This document shows positions 32,353 through 58,010 of a stretch of 64,000 nt of DNA, in pieces. The DNA lies in NCBI RefSeq assembly GCF_988243305.1, contig NZ_OZ547136.1; one strand, 5' to 3'. The translations under genes were made by a program, and so were the position numbers. Numbering within the stretch: position 1 is the first letter of the stretch; the number at the start of each line of letters is the position of its first letter. The notes under the pieces are model-generated. The model ran no database searches. It saw only the letters and a program-made list of their open reading frames with translations, and was not told the origin of the DNA.

Positions 32353-32540
32353 TGACCATCAGCGATATCATTGAAATTATTGTCGTTTGCGCACTGATAT
32401 TTTTCCCGCTGGGCTATCTGGCGCGGCACTCTTTGCGACGCATTCGCGACACCTTACGTTTGTTCTTTGCTAAACCTCGTTATGTTAAACCGGCCGGGAC
32501 GTTACGCCGCACGGAAAAAGCCAGGGCAACCAAAAAATGA
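32349..32540 (+). CDS. bcsF: Small membrane protein BcsF, 63 aa
   Basis: ORF track; single TM helix; start overlaps the bcsE stop. Confidence 0.9.
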
Positions 32541-34216
32541 CTCAATTTACGCAAAATACCGCCATGCCTTCTTCCCTCTGGCAATACTGGCGCGGCCTTT
32601 CCGGCTGGAACTTCTATTTTCTGGTTAAGTTCGGCCTGTTGTGGGCGGGATATCTTAACTTCCATCCGCTCCTCAATCTGGTGTTTGCCGCGTTTCTGCT
32701 GATGCCCATTCCGCGCTACAGCCTGCATCGCTTACGCCACTGGATTGCCCTGCCGATCGGCTTTGCTTTGTTCTGGCATGACACCTGGTTACCTGGCCCG
32801 GAAAGCATAATGAGCCAGGGTTCGCAGGTGGCGGGGTTCAGTACCGATTATTTAATCGACCTTGTCACACGCTTTATTAACTGGCAGATGATTGGGGCCA
32901 TTTTTGTTTTATTAGTGGCCTGGTTATTCCTGTCACAATGGATTCGCATTACCGTTTTTGTGGTTGCCATTCTGCTATGGCTGAACGTACTTACCCTGGC
33001 GGGACCAAGTTTCTCCTTGTGGCCAGCCGGTCAACCGACGACCACTGTAACAACGACGGGTGGTAACGCAGCGGCAACCGTTGCGGCGACGGGTGGCGCA
33101 CCGGTAGTGGGTGATATGCCCGCACAAACTGCACCGCCAACAACGGCGAACCTTAACGCCTGGCTGAATAATTTCTATAACGCGGAGGCGAAACGTAAAT
33201 CGACCTTCCCGTCTTCGCTGCCCGCTGATGCTCAGCCATTTGAACTACTGGTGATTAATATCTGTTCGCTTTCCTGGTCGGATATAGAAGCCGCCGGGTT
33301 GATGTCGCATCCGCTGTGGTCGCATTTCGATATTGAGTTCAAGAACTTTAACTCCGCCACCTCCTACAGTGGCCCGGCGGCGATCCGTTTACTGCGCGCC
33401 AGCTGCGGGCAGACTTCGCACACTAATCTGTATCAACCGGCAAATAATGACTGCTATCTGTTTGATAACCTGTCGAAACTGGGCTTTACCCAGCACCTGA
33501 TGATGGGACATAACGGCCAGTTCGGCGGTTTTTTGAAAGAAGTTCGCGAAAATGGCGGCATGCAGACCGAATTGATGGATCAAACAAATTTGCCGGTTAT
33601 TTTGCTGGGCTTTGATGGTTCGCCGGTTTATGACGATACCGCCGTGCTTAACCGCTGGCTGGACGTTACCGAAAAAGATAAAAACAGCCGTAGTGCCACG
33701 TTCTACAACACGCTTCCACTGCATGACGGCAACCATTATCCGGGCGTCAGCAAAACAGCGGATTACAAAGCGCGGGCGCAGAAATTCTTTGATGAACTGG
33801 ACGCCTTCTTTACTGAACTGGAGAAATCGGGTCGTAAAGTGATGGTGGTCGTGGTGCCGGAACACGGTGGCGCGCTGAAGGGCGACAGAATGCAGGTATC
33901 TGGCCTACGTGATATCCCTAGCCCGTCTATCACAGACGTCCCCGTTGGGGTGAAATTCTTCGGCATGAAGGCACCACATCAGGGGGCACCGATTGTCATC
34001 GACCAACCGAGCAGCTTCCTGGCTATCTCCGATCTGGTGGTTCGCGTTCTTGATGGCAAGATTTTCTCCGAAGACAATGTTGACTGGAAAAAACTCACCA
34101 GTGGGTTGCCACAAACAGCACCGGTCTCAGAGAACTCAAATGCAGTAGTTATTCAATACCAGGATAAACCGTACGTTCGCCTGAACGGCGGCGACTGGGT
34201 GCCTTACCCGCAATAA
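32537..34216 (+). CDS. bcsG: Cellulose phosphoethanolamine transferase BcsG, 559 aa
   Basis: ORF track; N-terminal TM segments plus alkaline-phosphatase-like periplasmic domain; start overlaps the bcsF stop. Confidence 0.95.
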
Positions 34217-34221
34217 GAACG

Positions 34222-34253
34222 AAAAAGGCCGCAGAGTTTCACCCCTGCGGCCT
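34222..34253 (-). terminator. Intrinsic terminator of ldr copy 1 (ggccgcag / ctgcggcc followed by U-run on the minus strand)
   Basis: 8-bp GC stem with a TTTTT run on the minus strand, about 50 bp 3' of the ldr stop. Confidence 0.7.
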
Positions 34254-34302
34254 GGTCCGGGCGCAAATTGCCATTACGGCAGCCTGACGCCCGCATGACA
34301 CG

Positions 34303-34410
34303 TTACTTCCGCTTATTCAGCGAGTTCACGATCAGACTGGCAAGAATGCCAGCAATGACCGGAGCCGCTAAATCATGCCAGAAGGCCATGCCCAGTTCTG
34401 CGAGCGTCAT
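34303..34410 (-). CDS. ldr: Type I toxin Ldr, 35 aa (copy 1, MTLAELGMAFWHDLAAPVIAGILASLIVNSLNKRK)
   Basis: Last 35 codons of ORF 34303..34545 from the internal ATG at 34410; matches the Ldr small membrane toxin family; carries Ser in place of Trp at residue 30. Confidence 0.85.
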   Translation of the reverse strand: MTLAELGMAFWHDLAAPVIAGILASLIVNSLNKRK

Positions 34411-34458
34411 ATAGCCGCCTCTGTTGTAATGACAACGTTTCGCGGCTATTCTTGAGTT

Positions 34459-34522
34459 GTTTGGGTTCAAGATTAGCCCCCGTGATGTTGTCAGGTGCAT
34501 ACCTGCAATATGCGGGGGTTTT
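34459..34522 (+). ncRNA. rdl: Rdl antisense RNA (antitoxin) of ldr copy 1, approximate ends
   Basis: Plus-strand stem-loop agcccccg...cgggggtttt (intrinsic terminator) antisense to the ldr leader; 5' end inferred from the recalled RdlD sequence. Confidence 0.5.
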
Positions 34523-34704
34523 CTCTCTCCAGCAACCAATGCCACTAGGGATTAAGCCCCCGCAACATTGCGCCTCACCGGAACCCTTCCGGCTTGCCGC
34601 TGATTCTACGGCCATTTTTGTTCGTCGAAATCCATCACTTCTTCACTCTGTGCTGCGCATTCCGCAGAATATTATCCGCTTGCAACCGTTGCATTTTTCT
34701 TACG

Positions 34705-34736
34705 AAAAAGGCCGCAGAGTTTTATCCCTGCGGCCT
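34705..34736 (-). terminator. Intrinsic terminator of ldr copy 2
   Basis: Same hairpin plus U-run as in unit 1, shifted by 483 bp. Confidence 0.7.
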
Positions 34737-34785
34737 GATCCGGGCGCAAATTGCCATTACGGCAGCCTGACGCCCGTCTGACACG

Positions 34786-34893
34786 TTACTTCCGCTTGTT
34801 CAGCCAGTTCACGATCAGACTGGCAAGAATGCCAGCAATGACCGGAGCCGCTAAATCATGCCAGAAGGCCATGCCCAGCTCTGCGAGCGTCAT
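34786..34893 (-). CDS. ldr: Type I toxin Ldr, 35 aa (copy 2, ...ILASLIVNWLNKRK)
   Basis: Last 35 codons of ORF 34786..35061 from the internal ATG at 34893. Confidence 0.85.
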   Translation of the reverse strand: MTLAELGMAFWHDLAAPVIAGILASLIVNWLNKRK

Positions 34894-34941
34894 ATAGCCG
34901 CCTGAGTTGTAATGACAACGTTTCGCGGCTATTCTTGTATT

Positions 34942-35005
34942 GTTTGGATGCAAGAATGGCCCCCGTGGTGTTGTCAGGTGCATACCTGCAACGTGCGGGG
35001 GTTTT
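34942..35005 (+). ncRNA. rdl: Rdl antisense RNA of ldr copy 2, approximate ends
   Basis: Plus-strand gcccccgtggtgttgtcaggtgcatacctgcaacgtgcgggggtttt stem-loop and terminator; the 5' part differs from copies 1 and 3. Confidence 0.45.
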
Positions 35006-35187
35006 CTCTCTCCAGCAACCAATGCCACCAGGGATAAAGCCCCCGCAACATTGCGCCTCACCGGAACCTTTCCGGCTTGCCGCTGATTCTACGACTGTTT
35101 TTCTGCTCCGGAATCCGTCACTTCTTCACTCTGTGCTGTGCATTCCGCAGAATATTATCCGCTTGCAACCGTTGCATTTTTCTTACG

Positions 35188-35219
35188 AAAAAGGCCGCAG
35201 AGTTTTATCCCTGCGGCCT
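35188..35219 (-). terminator. Intrinsic terminator of ldr copy 3
   Basis: Same hairpin plus U-run, shifted by 966 bp from unit 1. Confidence 0.7.
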
Positions 35220-35268
35220 GATCCGGACGCAACTTGCCATTACGGCAGCCTGACGCCCGTCTGACACG

Positions 35269-35376
35269 TTACTTCCGCTTATTCAGCCAATTCACGATCA
35301 TGCTGGCAAGAATGCCAGCAATGACCGGAGCCGCTAAATCATGCCAGAAGGCCATGCCCAGTTCTGCGAGCGTCAT
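35269..35376 (-). CDS. ldr: Type I toxin Ldr, 35 aa (copy 3, ...ILASMIVNWLNKRK)
   Basis: Last 35 codons of ORF 35269..35511 from the internal ATG at 35376. Confidence 0.85.
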   Translation of the reverse strand: MTLAELGMAFWHDLAAPVIAGILASMIVNWLNKRK

Positions 35377-35424
35377 ATAGCCGCCTGTGTTGTAATGACA
35401 ACGTTTCGCGGCTATTCTTGAGTG

Positions 35425-35488
35425 GTCTAGGTTCAAGATTAGCCCCCGTGATGTTGTCAGGTGCATACCTGCAACGTGCGGGGGTTTT
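35425..35488 (+). ncRNA. rdl: Rdl antisense RNA of ldr copy 3, approximate ends
   Basis: gtctaggttcaagattagcccccg...cgggggtttt on the plus strand; best match to the RdlD sequence as I recall it. Confidence 0.5.
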
Positions 35489-35851
35489 CTCTCTCCAGCA
35501 ACCAATGCCACCAGGGATTAAGCCCCCGCAACATTGCGCCTCACCGGAACCTTTCCGGCTTGCCGCTGATTTTACGATTGCTTTTTACCGTCAGCACCCG
35601 GCAATCTTCCTCATTGCGCGATGCCTTCCAGCTTAATTTCTTTATTTGCAATAGTTGCAGTTCATATCCGAGCTGACTCCAGACTGGTAGTGAAATGCGC
35701 AATTTTGTAGAATTGCGCCTCCTCGCGACCTCCCCAGTGAATCTGTTGCCTCATTTTTTACATACTGCGTATTCGACTTCTCCACCTGTTGCGCAAGAGA
35801 AACTGGGTTTATTCATTTTTGCGAGGCCGACTTCTTTCTGGACAGGACTTT

Positions 35852-37123
35852 ATGCAGCACAACACACTACCGAAACACAATCAGAAATTGCCGTTTACAC
35901 GCTACGACTTCGGCTGGGTTTTATTATGCATAGGCATGGCGATTGGTGCCGGAACCGTGCTGATGCCAGTACAAATTGGCTTGAAGGGAATTTGGGTATT
36001 TATTACCGCAGCGATCATTGCTTATCCTGCCACCTGGGTAGTGCAGGACATTTATTTAAAAACCCTTTCTGAAAGCGATTCCTGTAATGACTACACCGAT
36101 ATTATCAGTCATTACCTGGGGAAGAACTGGGGAATTTTCCTCGGGGTTATCTACTTTTTGATGATTATCCACGGGATTTTTATCTACTCTCTCTCCGTGG
36201 TTTTCGACAGCGCCTCGTACCTGAAAACCTTCGGTTTAACCGATGCCGATCTTTCACAATCTCTACTTTATAAAGTCGCCATTTTCGCCGTACTGGTGGC
36301 AATTGCGTCTGGTGGTGAACGATTACTGTTTAAGATTTCCGGGCCAATGGTGGTGGTCAAAGTAGGGATTATCGTCGTGTTCGGTTTTGCGATGATCCCG
36401 CACTGGAATTTCGCCAATATAACCGCCTTCCCGCAAGCCTCCGTCTTTTTCCGCGATGTCCTGCTTACCATTCCCTTTTGCTTCTTTTCTGCGGTATTTA
36501 TTCAGGTACTTAACCCAATGAATATTGCCTATCGTAAACGGGAAGCGGATAAAGTACTGGCAACCCGGCTCGCGCTGCGTACCCACCGAATTAGTTATAT
36601 CACGCTCATTGCGGTGATCCTGTTTTTTGCCTTTTCGTTTACCTTCTCAATTAGCCACGAAGAAGCCGTTTCTGCCTTTGAACAAAATATCTCGGCACTG
36701 GCACTGGCCGCGCAGGTGATCCCTGGGCATATCATTCATATCACCTCTACGGTGCTGAATATCTTTGCCGTACTGACCGCATTCTTTGGCATTTATCTCG
36801 GTTTCCACGAGGCCATTAAAGGCATTATTCTCAATCTGTTAAGCCGAATTATTGATACCAAGAAAATTAACTCACGCATGCTGACTCTGGCGATCTGCGC
36901 TTTTATCGTCATTACGTTGACGATTTGGGTTTCGTTTCGTGTATCGGTGCTGGTGTTCTTTCAGTTGGGAAGCCCGTTATATGGCATTGTGTCGTGCCTC
37001 ATTCCGTTTTTCCTGATCTATAAAGTCGCACAACTGGAAAAACTTCGCGGGTTTAAAGCCTGGCTGATTCTGCTGTACGGCATTTTGTTATGCTTGTCGC
37101 CACTGTTGAAGCTGATTGAGTAA
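35852..37123 (+). CDS. yhjV: Putative amino-acid transporter (HAAAP/STP-like inner-membrane protein), 423 aa
   Basis: ORF track 35789..37123; canonical start [15 protein letters not shown] at the internal ATG (35852); polytopic membrane protein. Confidence 0.92.
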
Positions 37124-43460: not shown

Positions 43461-43560
43461 GAATTTGGTCGGTGCCAGAGGATTACTCGCCACTTCGTGG
43501 CTCGCCCTGCGGGCCGTTGCTGGCGCAACGTTCTCTCGCTTCGCTCGAGTCGAACCTCCC
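43461..43560 (-). other. tRNA-Pro-like 3' fragment (pseudo-tRNA remnant) with an approximately 60-nt insertion
   Basis: In proK orientation the segment reads ...ggaggttcga-[about 63 nt]-atcctctggcaccgaccaaattc, matching the proK T-arm and acceptor 3' end plus 6 flanking bases (ggaggttcgaatcctctatcaccgaccaaattc). Confidence 0.4.
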
Positions 43561-43597
43561 TGCCCCCGGAGGTTCTCATCCTCATAGGCTACAAATG

Positions 43598-43630
43598 CAA
43601 AAAAGCCTGCTCGTTGAGCAGGCTTTTCGA
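43598..43630 (-). terminator. proK intrinsic terminator (agcctgctc gttg agcaggct, U-run on the minus strand)
   Basis: 9/8-bp GC-rich stem followed by TTTTTT directly 3' of the tRNA. Confidence 0.85.
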
Positions 43631-43633
43631 ATT

Positions 43634-43710
<77 letters not shown>

Positions 43711-54870: not shown

Positions 54871-54907
54871 TTGCATCACCCGCCAATGCGTGGCTTAATG
54901 CACATCA
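54871..54907 (+). promoter_or_regulatory. cspA promoter (-35 TTGCAT, -10 CTTAAT, AT-rich UP element upstream)
   Basis: Hexamers with 17-bp spacing ending about 8 bp before the inferred transcription start at 54908. Confidence 0.65.
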
Positions 54908-55066
54908 ACGGTTTGACGTACAGACCATTAAAGCAGTGTAGTAAGGCAAGTCCCTTCAAGAGTTATCGTTGATACCCCTCGTAGTGCACATTCCTTTAAC
55001 GCTTCAAAATCTGTAAAGCACGCCATATCGCCGAAAGGCACACTTAATTATTAAAGGTAATACACT
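54908..55066 (+). promoter_or_regulatory. cspA 159-nt 5' UTR (RNA thermosensor) including the cold box TGACGTACAGA at 54914..54924
   Basis: Cold-box sequence present near the 5' end of the leader; long untranslated leader before the cspA Shine-Dalgarno. Confidence 0.75.
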
Positions 55067-55279
55067 ATGTCCGGTAAAATGACTGGTATCGTAAAATGGT
55101 TCAACGCTGACAAAGGCTTCGGCTTCATCACTCCTGACGATGGCTCTAAAGACGTGTTCGTACACTTCTCTGCTATCCAGAACGATGGTTACAAATCTCT
55201 GGACGAAGGTCAGAAAGTGTCCTTCACCATCGAAAGCGGCGCTAAAGGCCCGGCAGCTGGTAACGTAACCAGCCTGTAA
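55067..55279 (+). CDS. cspA: Major cold-shock protein CspA, 70 aa
   Basis: ORF track; RNP1 KGFGFI and RNP2 VFVHF motifs; exact recognition of [34 protein letters not shown]... Confidence 0.98.
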
Positions 55280-55306
55280 TCTCTGCTTAAAAGCACAGAA
55301 TCTAAG

Positions 55307-55335
55307 ATCCCTGCCATTTGGCGGGGATTTTTTTA
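55307..55335 (+). terminator. cspA intrinsic terminator (atccctgcc attt ggcggggat followed by TTTTTTT)
   Basis: GC-rich hairpin plus T7 run 28 bp after the cspA stop. Confidence 0.9.
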
Positions 55336-55466: not shown

Positions 55467-55619
55467 TTACTCTTTCAAATTGCAGGCTAAAAATGCCGCC
55501 AGCTCATAACTCCCCTGTTTAATATGCAATTCACACAGTGAATCTCTTATCATCCAGGTGAAAAATAAAAGCGTGCAACAAATCACTATTAAAGAAAGTA
55601 ATCTATATTTCTGCGGCAT
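55467..55619 (-). CDS. hokA: Type I toxin HokA (Hok/Gef family small membrane toxin), 50 aa
   Basis: Internal ATG of ORF 55467..55679 with AGGAGG Shine-Dalgarno 6 nt upstream; MPQKYRLLSLIVICCTLLFFTWMIRDSLCELHIKQGSYELAAFLACNLKE. Confidence 0.88.
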   Translation of the reverse strand: MPQKYRLLSLIVICCTLLFFTWMIRDSLCELHIKQGSYELAAFLACNLKE

Positions 55620-55940
55620 TCCCAGCCTCCTGTGTTGATTTCCAACGAGTAAGAGGCTAACCTTATGGTGTTCAGGCATAGGGTAGCCTCACTTTGATTT
55701 ATAGTCAGGTGGGGCTTTTCTCTGTCTGCCTTTCGGTGAATACCTGAGACAAACAGTCTCAAGCACCCGCAGCTATTCTAGCTTAATAAGTTCGTTTCTT
55801 CTCCTTGATATAATCCTAAAAAAATCTCATAAAATTAATATATGAGACAATCTTTATTCAGCAGAAGATTATTAAAGGTTGCTCTATTATTTAGCGATAA
55901 AAAAGCCTGCCAGATGGCAGGCTTTTTAATAACGGCGTTA

Positions 55941-58010
55941 TTACTGCAACAGCGAAATATCCGCAACGCGCAGGAACAGTTCGCGCAGTTTCTCCAGCAT
56001 GGTCAAACGGTTAATACGCAATTCTTTGTCATCAACCATGACCATCACTTTATCGAAGAAGGCATCAACCGGTTCACGCAATTCAGCCAGTTCGACCAGC
56101 GCGTCCTGGTAACGACCTTCGGCGAAGTACGGCTCCAGTTTATCGCGCAGCACAACCACCTGCATCGCCAGTTTAATTTCTTCCGGCTCTTTCAGAGTAG
56201 AAGCATTCACGCGATCGCTCAGCACTTCGTCAGACTTCGCCAGAATGTTAGATACACGCTTGTTCGCCGCCGCCAGTGCTGCAGCTGCTTCCAGGGTACG
56301 GAAGTGCGATACCGCTTTCATTCGGGCATCGAAATCAGCCGGACGCGTCGGACGACGTGCCAGTACCGCCTGGATGGTGTCAACGGTGTAACCTTCGTCC
56401 TGATACCAGGCGCGGAAGCGACCGAGCATAAAGTCGATAACATCATCAACCACGTTGGCATTAGTCAGCTTATCGCCATACAGACGCACTGCTTCTTCGG
56501 TCAGCGTTTGCAGATCAAGGTTGAGGTTCTTCTCAACGATAATGCGCAGCACGCCAAGTGCGGCACGACGCAGCGCAAACGGGTCTTTATCGCCTTTCGG
56601 ATGCTGACCGATACCGAAAATACCCGCCAGGGTGTCCATCTTGTCAGCAATCGCCAGCGCACAAGCCACTGGGTTAGACGGCAGGTCATCACCGGCAAAA
56701 CGCGGCTGATACTGCTCGTTCAGCGCCACTGCCACATCTTCCGCTTCGCCATCGTGACGCGCGTAGTGCATCCCCATAACGCCCTGGGTGTCGGTGAACT
56801 CGAAGACCATGTTGGTCATCAGGTCACACTTAGACAGCAGGCCCGCACGGGTTGCGTGGTTAACGTCAGCGCCAATCTGTTCAGCAATCCAGCCAGCCAG
56901 CGCCTGGATGCGGTCAGTTTTGTCGCGCAGTGTACCCAGCTGTTGCTGAAACAACACGGTTTGCAGGCGCGGCAGGTTATCTTCCAGACGTTTTTTACGG
57001 TCGGTGTTGAAGAAGAACTCGGCATCCGCCAGACGTGGACGAACGACTTTCTCGTTACCAGAGATAATTTGCTGCGGATCTTTCGATTCGATGTTGGCAA
57101 CGAAGATAAAGTTCGGCAGCAGTTTGCCGTCGTTCGCATACACCGGGAAGTATTTCTGGTCACCTTTCATGGTGTAAACCAGCGCTTCAGACGGCACCGC
57201 GAGGAATTTCTCTTCGAATTTTGCGGTCAGCACAACCGGCCATTCCACCAGCGAAGCCACTTCTTCCAACAGGCTTTCGCTTAAGTCAGCGTTACCGCCA
57301 ATCTTACGTGCTGCTTCTTCGGCATCGGCTTTAATCTTCGCCTTACGTTCTTCGTAATCGGCGATGACTTTCCCGCGCTCACGCAGAATTTCCGGATACT
57401 GATCGGCGTTATCGATGGTGAATTCCGGCTCGCCCATAAAGCGGTGGCCGCGAATCACGCGATCGGACTGAATGCCCAGAATGGTAGCCGGAATAACTTT
57501 GTCGCCCAGCAGCAGGGTCACGGTGTGCACCGGACGCACGAAGTGCACGTCGCTTGCACCCCAGCGCATCAGTTTCGGGATCGGCAGTTTCGCCAGCGAA
57601 GTTGCAACCATATTCGGCAGCAGTGCTTCGGTGCTTTCGCCCTTCACGTGGGCGCGATACAGCAGCCATTCGCCTTTATCGGTAGTCAGACGCTCAGCCT
57701 GGTCAACGGTAATACCGCAACCACGCGCCCAACCTTCTGCCGCTTTGCTCGGTTTGCCTTCAGCGTCGAACGCCTGGGCAATCGCCGGGCCGCGTTTTTC
57801 GATTTCACGATCCGGTTGCGCTTCCGCCAGGTTAGCTACTTTCAGCGCCAGACGACGCGGAGCAGCAAACCATTGAACGGTGCCGTGTGCGAGGCCAGCG
57901 TTATCCAGCTCCACAGTAAAGTTCGCAGCAAAGGACTCAGCCAGGCTGCGCAGTGCTTTTGGTGGCAGCTCTTCAGTGCCGATTTCCACCAGAAAAGTTT
58001 TCTCAGACAT
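55941..58010 (-). CDS. glyS: Glycine--tRNA ligase beta subunit, 689 aa
   Basis: ORF track; recognised as GlyS. Confidence 0.97.

Follow-up and report, generated by a model that had tools for sequence, protein, structure and literature searches.

Results and Discussion

Three tandem LDR-D units between bcsG and yhjV

The region between bcsG and yhjV in the window analyzed here (the whole stretch of 64,000 nucleotides) can be described with high confidence as a three-unit tandem array of LDR-D type, each unit being a complete type I toxin-antitoxin (TA) module, at an old polymorphic locus. Tandem Repeats Finder (TRF) returned a single array at positions 34219-35586 (period 483, 2.8 copies, 93% matches, 0% indels, score 2433), and a repeat search of the window gave three in-register copies starting at 34219, 34702 and 35185. 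Together with alignment to K-12 LDR-D, these analyses define unit 1 (34219..34701, 483 bp), which comprises the ldr terminator, the ldr ORF, rdl, the ldr 5' UTR, the -10 box and a 114-bp inter-unit spacer (34588-34701), and unit 2 (34702..35184, 483 bp). Unit 3 (35185..35586), delimited by TRF and the K-12 LDR-D alignment, has ~400 bp of repeat homology; past ~35580 the sequence continues into the yhjV-proximal flank that is common to K-12 LDR-D. The array is preceded by bcsG (32537..34216, plus strand) and followed by yhjV (35852..37123, plus strand), a 1272-nt CDS as annotated in strain NY1601 and in K-12. With three units, 1,635 bp separate the bcsG stop from the yhjV start, whereas a single unit would leave ~669 bp. 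The units correspond to long direct repeats in the sense of Kawano 2002, that is, head-to-tail repeats of ~0.45-0.5 kb with one ldr/rdl pair each.

The original prediction, made from the sequence alone, had proposed a 483-bp head-to-tail repeat in three copies. That repeat is present, with the proposed starts (34221, 34704 and 35187) shifted in phase by 2 nt and the proposed end (35576) lying within 10 nt of the point where homology decays. Every element assigned to a unit (ldr ORF, Rdl, terminators) was found at the proposed coordinates or 2-10 nt away, and bcsG and yhjV were confirmed as flanks both by position and by comparison with NY1601. The identification of the repeats as LdrD-type Ldr/Rdl type I TA units was likewise correct according to Pfam, Rfam and the locus.

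The Ldr peptides

Each unit carries a minus-strand ORF, located at 34303..34410 in unit 1 (35 aa, MTLAELGMAFWHDLAAPVIAGILASLIVNSLNKRK; Pfam PF13940; identical to WP_000170736.1 in NY1601), 34786..34893 in unit 2 (35 aa, ...ASLIVNWLNKRK; WP_000170738.1) and 35269..35376 in unit 3 (35 aa, ...ASMIVNWLNKRK; WP_001295224.1, more frequent in the sampled arrays than any other LdrD-type peptide). The unit 1 peptide matched the Pfam family PF13940 (Ldr_toxin) over its full length (1-35/35; E 1.2e-23, 83.3 bits), and 1-2 residues separate it from the peptides of units 2 and 3; an NCBIfam scan of the three peptides reported no family. Identity among the three, and of each to K-12 LdrD, is 91-97%, as against 57% to LdrA/B/C, which, along with their location at the LDR-D locus between bcsG and yhjV, places them in the LdrD group.

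The signature of the Ldr/Fst superfamily consists of a hydrophobic helix, a conserved Trp and a charged C-terminus (Fozo 2010, PMC2887945). The Trp is kept in units 2 and 3, which end in IVNWLNKRK, and is missing in unit 1 alone, where the peptide ends in IVNSLNKRK (W30S). The PxxxG motif (PVIAG) is found in all three peptides.

Rdl RNAs, terminators and predicted promoters

A plus-strand stem-loop fitting the Rdl antisense RNA had been proposed for each unit, and three matches to the rdlD family RF01813 were indeed obtained, all of them full length (model 1-66/66) and well above the gathering score of 50, at 82-90 bits. They correspond to positions 34459..34524 in unit 1 (86.2 bits; fold -30.2 kcal/mol, z -4.2; 5' tail type A), 34942..35007 in unit 2 (81.7 bits; -30.1 kcal/mol, z -3.2; type B) and 35425..35490 in unit 3 (90.4 bits; -31.7 kcal/mol, z -4.9; type C), and the predicted folds leave the 5' tail unpaired. 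The 5' end of rdl lies 48 nt from the ldr ATG on the opposite strand (e.g., ATG at 34410 and rdl from 34459). This spacing equals that of K-12 ldrD/rdlD, with whose annotation the general layout also agrees, rdl being antisense to the ldr 5' UTR and clear of the start codon.

The minus-strand intrinsic terminator expected for the ldr mRNA was located in all three units, at 34226..34253 (11-bp stem with 8 GC pairs, followed by a T run), 34709..34736 and 35192..35219 (both with an 11-bp stem and 8 GC pairs). With the plus-strand terminator hairpins of Rdl, one per unit, this makes six terminators, compared to 1.9 +/- 1.2 in shuffled sequences.

A consensus scan of positions 34100-35900 found no sigma-70 site, its threshold being too high for the rdl and ldr promoters, and these were therefore placed by eye, with the RNA ends given by Rfam and K-12 as reference points. 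The putative ldr -10 boxes, read from the sequence on the minus strand, are TAGAAT at 34603..34608 in unit 1, TAGAAT at 35086-35091 in unit 2 and TAAAAT at 35569-35574 in unit 3, and from these positions an ldr mRNA of ~372 nt would be implied. The predicted rdl promoter of unit 1 (34424..34452, plus strand; TTGTAA, 17 nt, TATTCT), also read from the sequence, matches the consensus at 8 of 12 positions, which is under the scan threshold; the 5' end defined by Rfam is 6 nt downstream, and the same arrangement recurs 483 and 966 nt further on. The -35 region of ldr is made of spacer sequence in the internal units and of the yhjV flank in the last one, so expression may differ between units.

Proposed working of each unit

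According to the model that we favor, the minus strand of each unit would give rise to the ~372-nt ldr mRNA, with a long 5' UTR, the 35-codon ORF and the intrinsic terminator, and the product of the ORF would be a small hydrophobic toxin of the inner membrane. From the plus strand would come a 66-nt Rdl RNA, in which the 5' tail is unpaired and the terminator forms a long hairpin. Rdl is perfectly complementary to its own ldr 5' UTR, over the stretch that precedes the start codon by 49-114 nt; by analogy with the K-12 literature, the Rdl-ldr duplex would leave the toxin untranslated and then be cut by RNase III. In K-12, Rdl is an unstable ~60-nt RNA that represses ldr translation (PMC4147584, PMC7373196), and cleavage of the ldrD-rdlD duplex by RNase III takes place in vivo (PMC7373196). 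We infer expression from each of the three units in this strain.

It has been proposed that Rdl blocks a leader ORF, ldrX, whose translation is coupled to that of ldr (PMC4147584, PMC8167048). Two candidates for ldrX can be read here, i.e. an ATG within the region targeted by Rdl, in frame with ldr and open for 30 codons into it, and a 20-codon ORF starting with TTG in another frame and overlapping the ldr start. K-12 and each of the three units retain both, although 30 open codons are not significant on their own.

Copy number in E. coli

The single copy attributed to K-12 at this locus was borne out in MG1655, which has one ldrD/rdlD at bcsG-yhjV, and so was the location of its only triple array elsewhere, as ldrABC/rdlABC at kdsA-chaA. 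The unusual character that the original prediction implied for a triple array did not hold. Of 5,426 complete E. coli genomes, 3,304 contain the inter-unit spacer that K-12 lacks, with a median of 2 per genome, so no fewer than 61% carry at least two units at bcsG-yhjV. In a sample of 59 evenly spaced complete chromosomes, three units were found in 21 (~36%), one in 23 (39%), two in 5 (8%) and four or more in 10 (17%); O157:H7 EDL933 has one copy at this locus. LdrD/RdlD arrays are already annotated in RefSeq, Kim et al. (2017, PMC5435950) described a bcsG-yhjV interval with three ldrD/rdlD pairs in BL21(DE3), with transcriptome support, and lineage-specific duplications of the LdrD and LdrB groups have been reported (PMC2887945). 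The three-unit allele is thus common, already published and ordinary.

Origin of the array and alternative explanations

Two-unit arrays with a homologous spacer (82-91%) exist in representatives of two other Escherichia species. The search in other species used an exact 24-nt pattern on one-genome-per-species contigs and yielded 6 loci; it was too strict for Salmonella, E. fergusonii and E. albertii. As for K-12, the MG1655 unit equals unit 1 of the B-strain array without mismatches up to unit position 393, and the right part of unit 3, also with 0 mismatches, from position 268. Being an exact fusion of units 1 and 3, K-12 is the derived state, produced by a 966-bp deletion with the crossover within unit positions 268-393. 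Copy number, which ranges from 1 to at least 4, shifts by homologous unequal recombination between units, and the single K-12 unit is one outcome of this process. Positional orthology of the units was considered and discarded, since a neighbor-joining (NJ) tree and the informative sites show mosaic units whose order changes.

Tandem repeats of ~0.5 kb can be mis-assembled from short reads, and the apparent lack of one ldr copy in a different strain has been speculated to be an assembly error (PMC7232551), so the three copies could be imagined as the mis-expanded repeat of a true single copy. However, whole unit 1 and whole unit 2 are only 93.4% identical, comparison of any two units over the 372-nt core gives 19-22 differences, and the three Rdl tails are of different types; the independent assembly of strain NY1601 contains the matching A-B-C array with 99.9% identity, and three units are found at the locus in over a third of the sampled complete genomes. 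The units are diverged paralogues and not an assembly duplication, and an artefact is extremely improbable. Nearly as hard to sustain is the idea that one ancestral unit, like that of K-12 ldrD/rdlD, was amplified recently and in this strain alone. Both K-12 and O157:H7 EDL933 are single-copy, and recent duplications of the same tail type do occur in some strains (G-G, I-I-F), but the units in the window have diverged and belong to distinct ancient types, and their A-B-C order appears in unrelated strains, also nested within A-D-B-C and A-F-B-C. Furthermore, single-copy loci contain nothing equivalent to the spacer, which is nevertheless kept in the two other Escherichia representatives mentioned above, the K-12 unit is itself a precise recombinant of units 1 and 3 of the B-strain array, and the NJ tree is opposite to the three units of the window being mutual closest relatives. 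All this indicates that the array is an old polymorphic locus and not a recent amplification.

The array could also be real with one or more units functionally decayed, leaving fewer than three active modules, a situation that we consider unlikely. The unit 1 peptide lacks the conserved Trp30, where it has Ser, and its toxin may be attenuated; frameshifted ldr copies are found in some arrays, such as unit 4 of O104:H4, and internal and terminal units do not have the same -35 region. On the other hand, no ORF, rdl gene, -10 box or terminator is disrupted in any of the three units, and the W30S allele occurs in ~6% of complete genomes, in one copy per genome, so it is not a private lesion. In PMC4147584 and PMC7472228, which cite Kawano 2002, toxicity upon overexpression (cell killing and nucleoid condensation) is described for K-12 LdrD and LdrA only, while the Fst prototype is toxic despite having no Trp (PMC7472228). 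Three complete modules remain our preferred reading of the array.

Variation in the Rdl 5' tail

Diversity is concentrated in the 5' tail of Rdl, for which 11 exact 22-nt variants were found in 25 loci, with types A, B, C, D and F present also in other Escherichia species. Types A, B and C are told apart by 3-8 differences in these 22 nt. The A-B-C order of the window recurs in unrelated strains and is contained in A-D-B-C and A-F-B-C arrays, and there are orders with a repeated type, G-G in strain 2015-01-2097 and I-I-F in an ST131 strain. A rule by which no tail type would appear twice in an array held in the first 11 multi-unit arrays and was broken by G-G and I-I-F once eight more E. coli loci were added. 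As a tentative and rather doubtful idea, the 19-nt unpaired Rdl tail and the complementary ldr 5' UTR might act as a specificity determinant that exists in a few ancient, discrete types. If so, tandem units would mostly be insulated TA pairs that do not cross-react, and arrays like A-B-C would represent repertoires shuffled by unequal recombination, with non-redundant copies. The diversity of the Rdl tail offers in any case a cheap and testable handle on the insulation of tandem type I TA paralogues.

Comparison with known systems

At bcsG-yhjV it is K-12 that is atypical, considering that 61% or more of the complete E. coli genomes hold two or more LdrD/RdlD units there, and consequently Ldr/Rdl studies, knock-outs and qPCR or Northern probes based on K-12 under-represent the system in most strains. 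The impact on annotation is small, given that RefSeq and Rfam already recognize the array and that a BL21(DE3) study has reported it.

The array of E. coli B and BL21(DE3) (PMC5435950; NEBExpress locus L010) resembles the one described here in locus, number of units, 483-bp period, spacer and architecture, and RdlD transcripts have been detected in the BL21 transcriptome (PMC5435950). Overall identity is 96.8%, with tail types G-B-A in B strains versus A-B-C here, and unit 1 of the B array encodes K-12 LdrD (F3), whereas unit 1 of the window encodes the L3/L26/W30S variant. K-12 MG1655 LDR-D (ldrD b4453/rdlD b4454) shares the locus, the LdrD-group peptide and the rdlD Rfam family, and it is 96% identical to unit 3 of the window plus flank, but it is a single unit without inter-unit spacer, in contrast with the three units of the window. 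The K-12 LDR-A/B/C region (ldrABC/rdlABC, kdsA-chaA) is also a tandem triple with the same order of terminator, ldr, rdl and 5' UTR; however, it is located elsewhere, its period is 535 bp instead of 483, its spacers are unrelated, and identity is ~64-65% at the nucleotide level and 57% between peptides, which belong to the LdrB group as opposed to the LdrD group. A candidate plasmid-borne Ldr module was set aside, the match inspected being a chromosomal prfA-kdsA-ldr-chaA segment on a 195-kb plasmid.

Beyond this family, ibs/sib and zorO/orzO likewise combine a small hydrophobic toxin with a cis-encoded, cognate-specific antisense RNA, in tandem paralogues within one intergenic region, and hok/sok is the parallel for the leader-ORF mechanism, ldrX being the mok-like ORF proposed in the literature for ldr; ibs/sib, zorO/orzO and hok/sok are nonetheless sequence families other than Ldr/Rdl.

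Structure and expression signals of the array

The array located between bcsG (32537-34216) and yhjV (35852-37123) belongs to a well-known type I toxin-antitoxin locus, of which it is a common allele that has been both annotated and published. Tandem Repeats Finder returned one array (34219-35586) with a period of 483 bp and 2.8 copies that match at 93% without indels, and in a separate repeat search the in-register copies started at 34219, 34702 and 35185 (n=3). Both bear out the three-unit, 483-bp tandem repeat of the original prediction, whose unit starts describe the same array with the phase off by 2 nt. The proposed 35-codon ldr ORF was present in every unit, on the minus strand: at 34303-34410 in unit 1 (peptide MTLAELGMAFWHDLAAPVIAGILASLIVNSLNKRK), at 34786-34893 in unit 2 (peptide ending in ...LIVNWLNKRK) and at 35269-35376 in unit 3 (ending in ...MIVNWLNKRK), with Pfam Ldr_toxin (PF13940) matching the unit 1 peptide over its full length (E 1.2e-23). 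An Rdl antisense RNA had also been expected on the plus strand of each unit, and the Rfam rdlD model RF01813 (gathering score 50) was matched in full three times, at 34459-34524 (86.2 bits), 34942-35007 (81.7 bits) and 35425-35490 (90.4 bits). When folded, each of these RNAs leaves at least 11 nt of its 5' tail unpaired, followed by a long hairpin (-30 to -32 kcal/mol, z -3.2 to -4.9). The terminator scan gave 6 sites vs 1.9 +/- 1.2 in shuffles, accounting for all the terminators predicted: three strong ones on the minus strand, each directly 3' of an ldr ORF, and three hairpins with a T run on the plus strand, each at an rdl 3' end.

Nothing in the single-copy K-12 locus corresponds to the inter-unit spacer (114 bp, 34588-34701). 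Units 1 and 2 share 93.4% identity as a whole and the cores (372 nt) show 19-22 differing positions per pair, so that the units are not duplicates of one copy, as had been noted. Given this divergence, and since the independent assembly of NY1601 contains the same array with 99.9% identity, an assembly artefact is very unlikely.

In K-12, LdrD overproduction causes cell killing and nucleoid condensation, and is counteracted by RdlD (~60 nt), even though this RNA targets the 5' UTR rather than the ribosome binding site (PMC4147584). LdrA is located in the inner membrane (PMC7472228), and among the dsRNAs captured with p19 an ldrD-rdlD duplex cleaved by RNase III is one of the most abundant (PMC7373196). 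Each unit of the window has the full parts list, with 48 nt between the ldr ATG and the 5' end of rdl on the opposite strand, and all three would be expressed and regulated as in K-12. A predicted -10 element is conserved on the minus strand (TAGAAT at 34603, TAGAAT at 35086 and TAAAAT at 35569, in units 1, 2 and 3, respectively), from which the predicted ldr mRNA would span ~372 nt to the terminator. The strength of this promoter may be unequal between units, since its -35 region is supplied by the spacer in units 1 and 2 but by the yhjV flank in unit 3. For rdl, a promoter-like TTGTAA-17-TATTCT ends 6 nt 5' of the Rfam-defined 5' end. A mok-like leader ORF, ldrX, exists as a proposal only (PMC4147584, PMC8167048). 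In the three units and in K-12, the ldr reading frame stays open upstream of the gene over at least 45 codons (minus strand; 34410-34545 in unit 1). An ATG in this frame, within the stretch complementary to Rdl, is conserved in all of them, as is a TTG ORF of 20 codons that runs in a different frame and overlaps the start of ldr. Both upstream ORFs are candidates for the proposed ldrX.

Codon 30 of the unit 1 ORF (34321-34323) encodes Ser in place of the Trp of the Ldr/Fst signature (W30S). This allele, searched as an exact 41-mer, has a single occurrence in each of 316-320 genomes among the 5,426 complete ones and is therefore not a private lesion; a spacer at least 99% identical is present in 316 genomes, and the equal numbers suggest that W30S is one lineage haplotype. 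The Fst prototype is toxic though it lacks the Trp (PMC7472228).

Two other RNA loci were observed in the window. The hokA/mokA/sokA type I locus (55467-55768, minus strand; neighbours cspA, 54907-55334, and glyS, 55941-58010) is intact by appearance: Rfam sok is matched over its full length (124 bits, 1-157/157), mokA-hokA forms a reading frame of 70 aa, and the stretch up to glyS is free of insertion sequences. In K-12 MG1655 the locus is split by IS150, with mokA and sokA annotated as pseudogenes. A tRNA-Pro(CGG) gene (43634-43710, minus strand) is directly followed by an RtT RNA element (43466-43601; Rfam RF00391, 98.7 bits).

Distribution among E. coli genomes

Of 5,426 complete E. coli genomes, 3,304 contained the spacer by megablast; the median was 2 per genome, which corresponds to three units, and no genome had more than 4. 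The corresponding 61% with two or more units is a lower bound, because megablast can overlook diverged spacers. Among 59 chromosomes evenly spaced down the ranking of a whole-locus search, 23 (39%) had one unit, 5 (8%) two, 21 (36%) three and 10 (17%) four or more, in agreement with the picture from a 40-row sample. Three-unit carriers comprise B/BL21 derivatives, ST131 and many others, four units are found e.g. in O104:H4, and the ORFs of all these arrays are annotated in RefSeq as Ldr family toxins. Three units at this site are not unusual, and the arrangement was already in print for BL21(DE3) (Kim et al., 2017; PMC5435950). LdrD- and LdrB-groups, lineage-specific duplications and wide differences in Ldr number between genomes had been reported previously (Fozo et al., 2010; PMC2887945).

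Decayed parts occur in some arrays, or beside them: the fourth ldr in O104:H4 FWSEC0009 is annotated as frameshifted, and the adjoining bcsG of KOr021 has an internal stop. Plasmid p23AR0151A (NZ_CP195449.1, 195 kb), the one plasmid match inspected, carries a prfA-prmC-sirB2-sirB1-kdsA-ldr-chaA-chaB-chaC-ychN block at 119138-125501, its ldr copy being captured chromosomal DNA. An E. coli-type unit junction (core, spacer, core; 91-96% identity) on a 503-bp contig with coverage 0.66 in 'Bacillus sp. EB106-08-02-XG196' (NZ_JABWSY010000055.1) is almost certainly contamination.

Origin of the array and variation of the Rdl 5' tail

Two-unit arrays with a homologous spacer are present at bcsG-yhjV in SCPM-O-B-8794 (labelled E. 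coli; spacer 91% identical, bcsG tail only 87%) and in Escherichia sp. E1V33 (spacer 82% identical), taken as representatives of two other Escherichia species; E. whittamii has one unit. The tandem structure is therefore older than the diversification of E. coli. From bcsG through unit 1 to unit position 393, MG1655 and the B strain NEBExpress show 0 mismatches in 693 nt, while from the right MG1655 equals NEBExpress unit 3, starting at unit position 268, and the adjoining yhjV flank, with one mismatch far out in yhjV. The two stretches overlap: K-12 ldrD/rdlD joins unit 1 of the B strain exactly to the right part of its unit 3. This pattern marks a 966-bp deletion via homologous recombination between both units, the crossover lying somewhere in unit positions 268-393. 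The reverse process, duplication of a K-12-like single copy, was rejected, as it could yield neither the spacer nor the diverged middle unit; the K-12 single unit is thus the derived state. Its exact derivation from a three-unit array by deletion is a mildly new by-product of this work. Positional orthology of the units was also discarded, since they are mosaic and their order varies.

Nucleotide diversity, computed over 37 units from 14 loci, peaks in the Rdl 5' tail (19 nt; 34459-34477, 34942-34960 and 35425-35443 in the window), with a pi of 0.174 vs 0.039 for the whole core, 0.025 for the ldr CDS and 0.010 for the distal 5' UTR. The tails fall into discrete types, 11 exact 22-nt variants in 25 loci. 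Their order is A-B-C in the window, NY1601 and RM10042, A-D-B-C in EL361, 2018-166 and O104:H4, A-F-B-C in MFDS1019527 and A-C in 2014C-3599 and PBP8, with C alone in EDL933; these related arrays look like additions and deletions within one series. A second series consists of G-B-A (B strain), G-F-B and G alone (K-12). Tail types are common to several E. coli lineages in shuffled order, and A, B, C, D and F occur too in other Escherichia species. A rule that no type appears twice per array fell with a larger sample, where G-G and I-I-F exist. Non-cognate Rdl/ldr pairs in the window have 4-7 mismatches per 66 nt, mostly in the tail, which may be a specificity determinant that insulates the units; Sib/Ibs and OrzO/ZorO are known to discriminate cognate from non-cognate partners, which is not known for Rdl. 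The tail as a hot spot of ancient, trans-specific and discrete variation is likewise mildly new.

Comparison with the K-12 ldr loci

MG1655 has one ldrD (b4453) and one rdlD (b4454) between bcsG and yhjV, and its triple array, ldrABC/rdlABC, only at kdsA-chaA, which is the K-12 state given in the original prediction. The assignment to Ldr/Rdl type I toxin-antitoxin units was also correct, and peptide and DNA identity indicate that the units are LdrD-type. Their arrangement of parts is that of K-12, and they share 91-97% peptide identity with K-12 LdrD and ~87-96% DNA identity with its locus. In contrast, identity to LdrA/B/C is 57% at the peptide level and ~64-65% at the DNA level, and the K-12 triple array has a period of 535 bp and spacers unrelated to those of the array described here.
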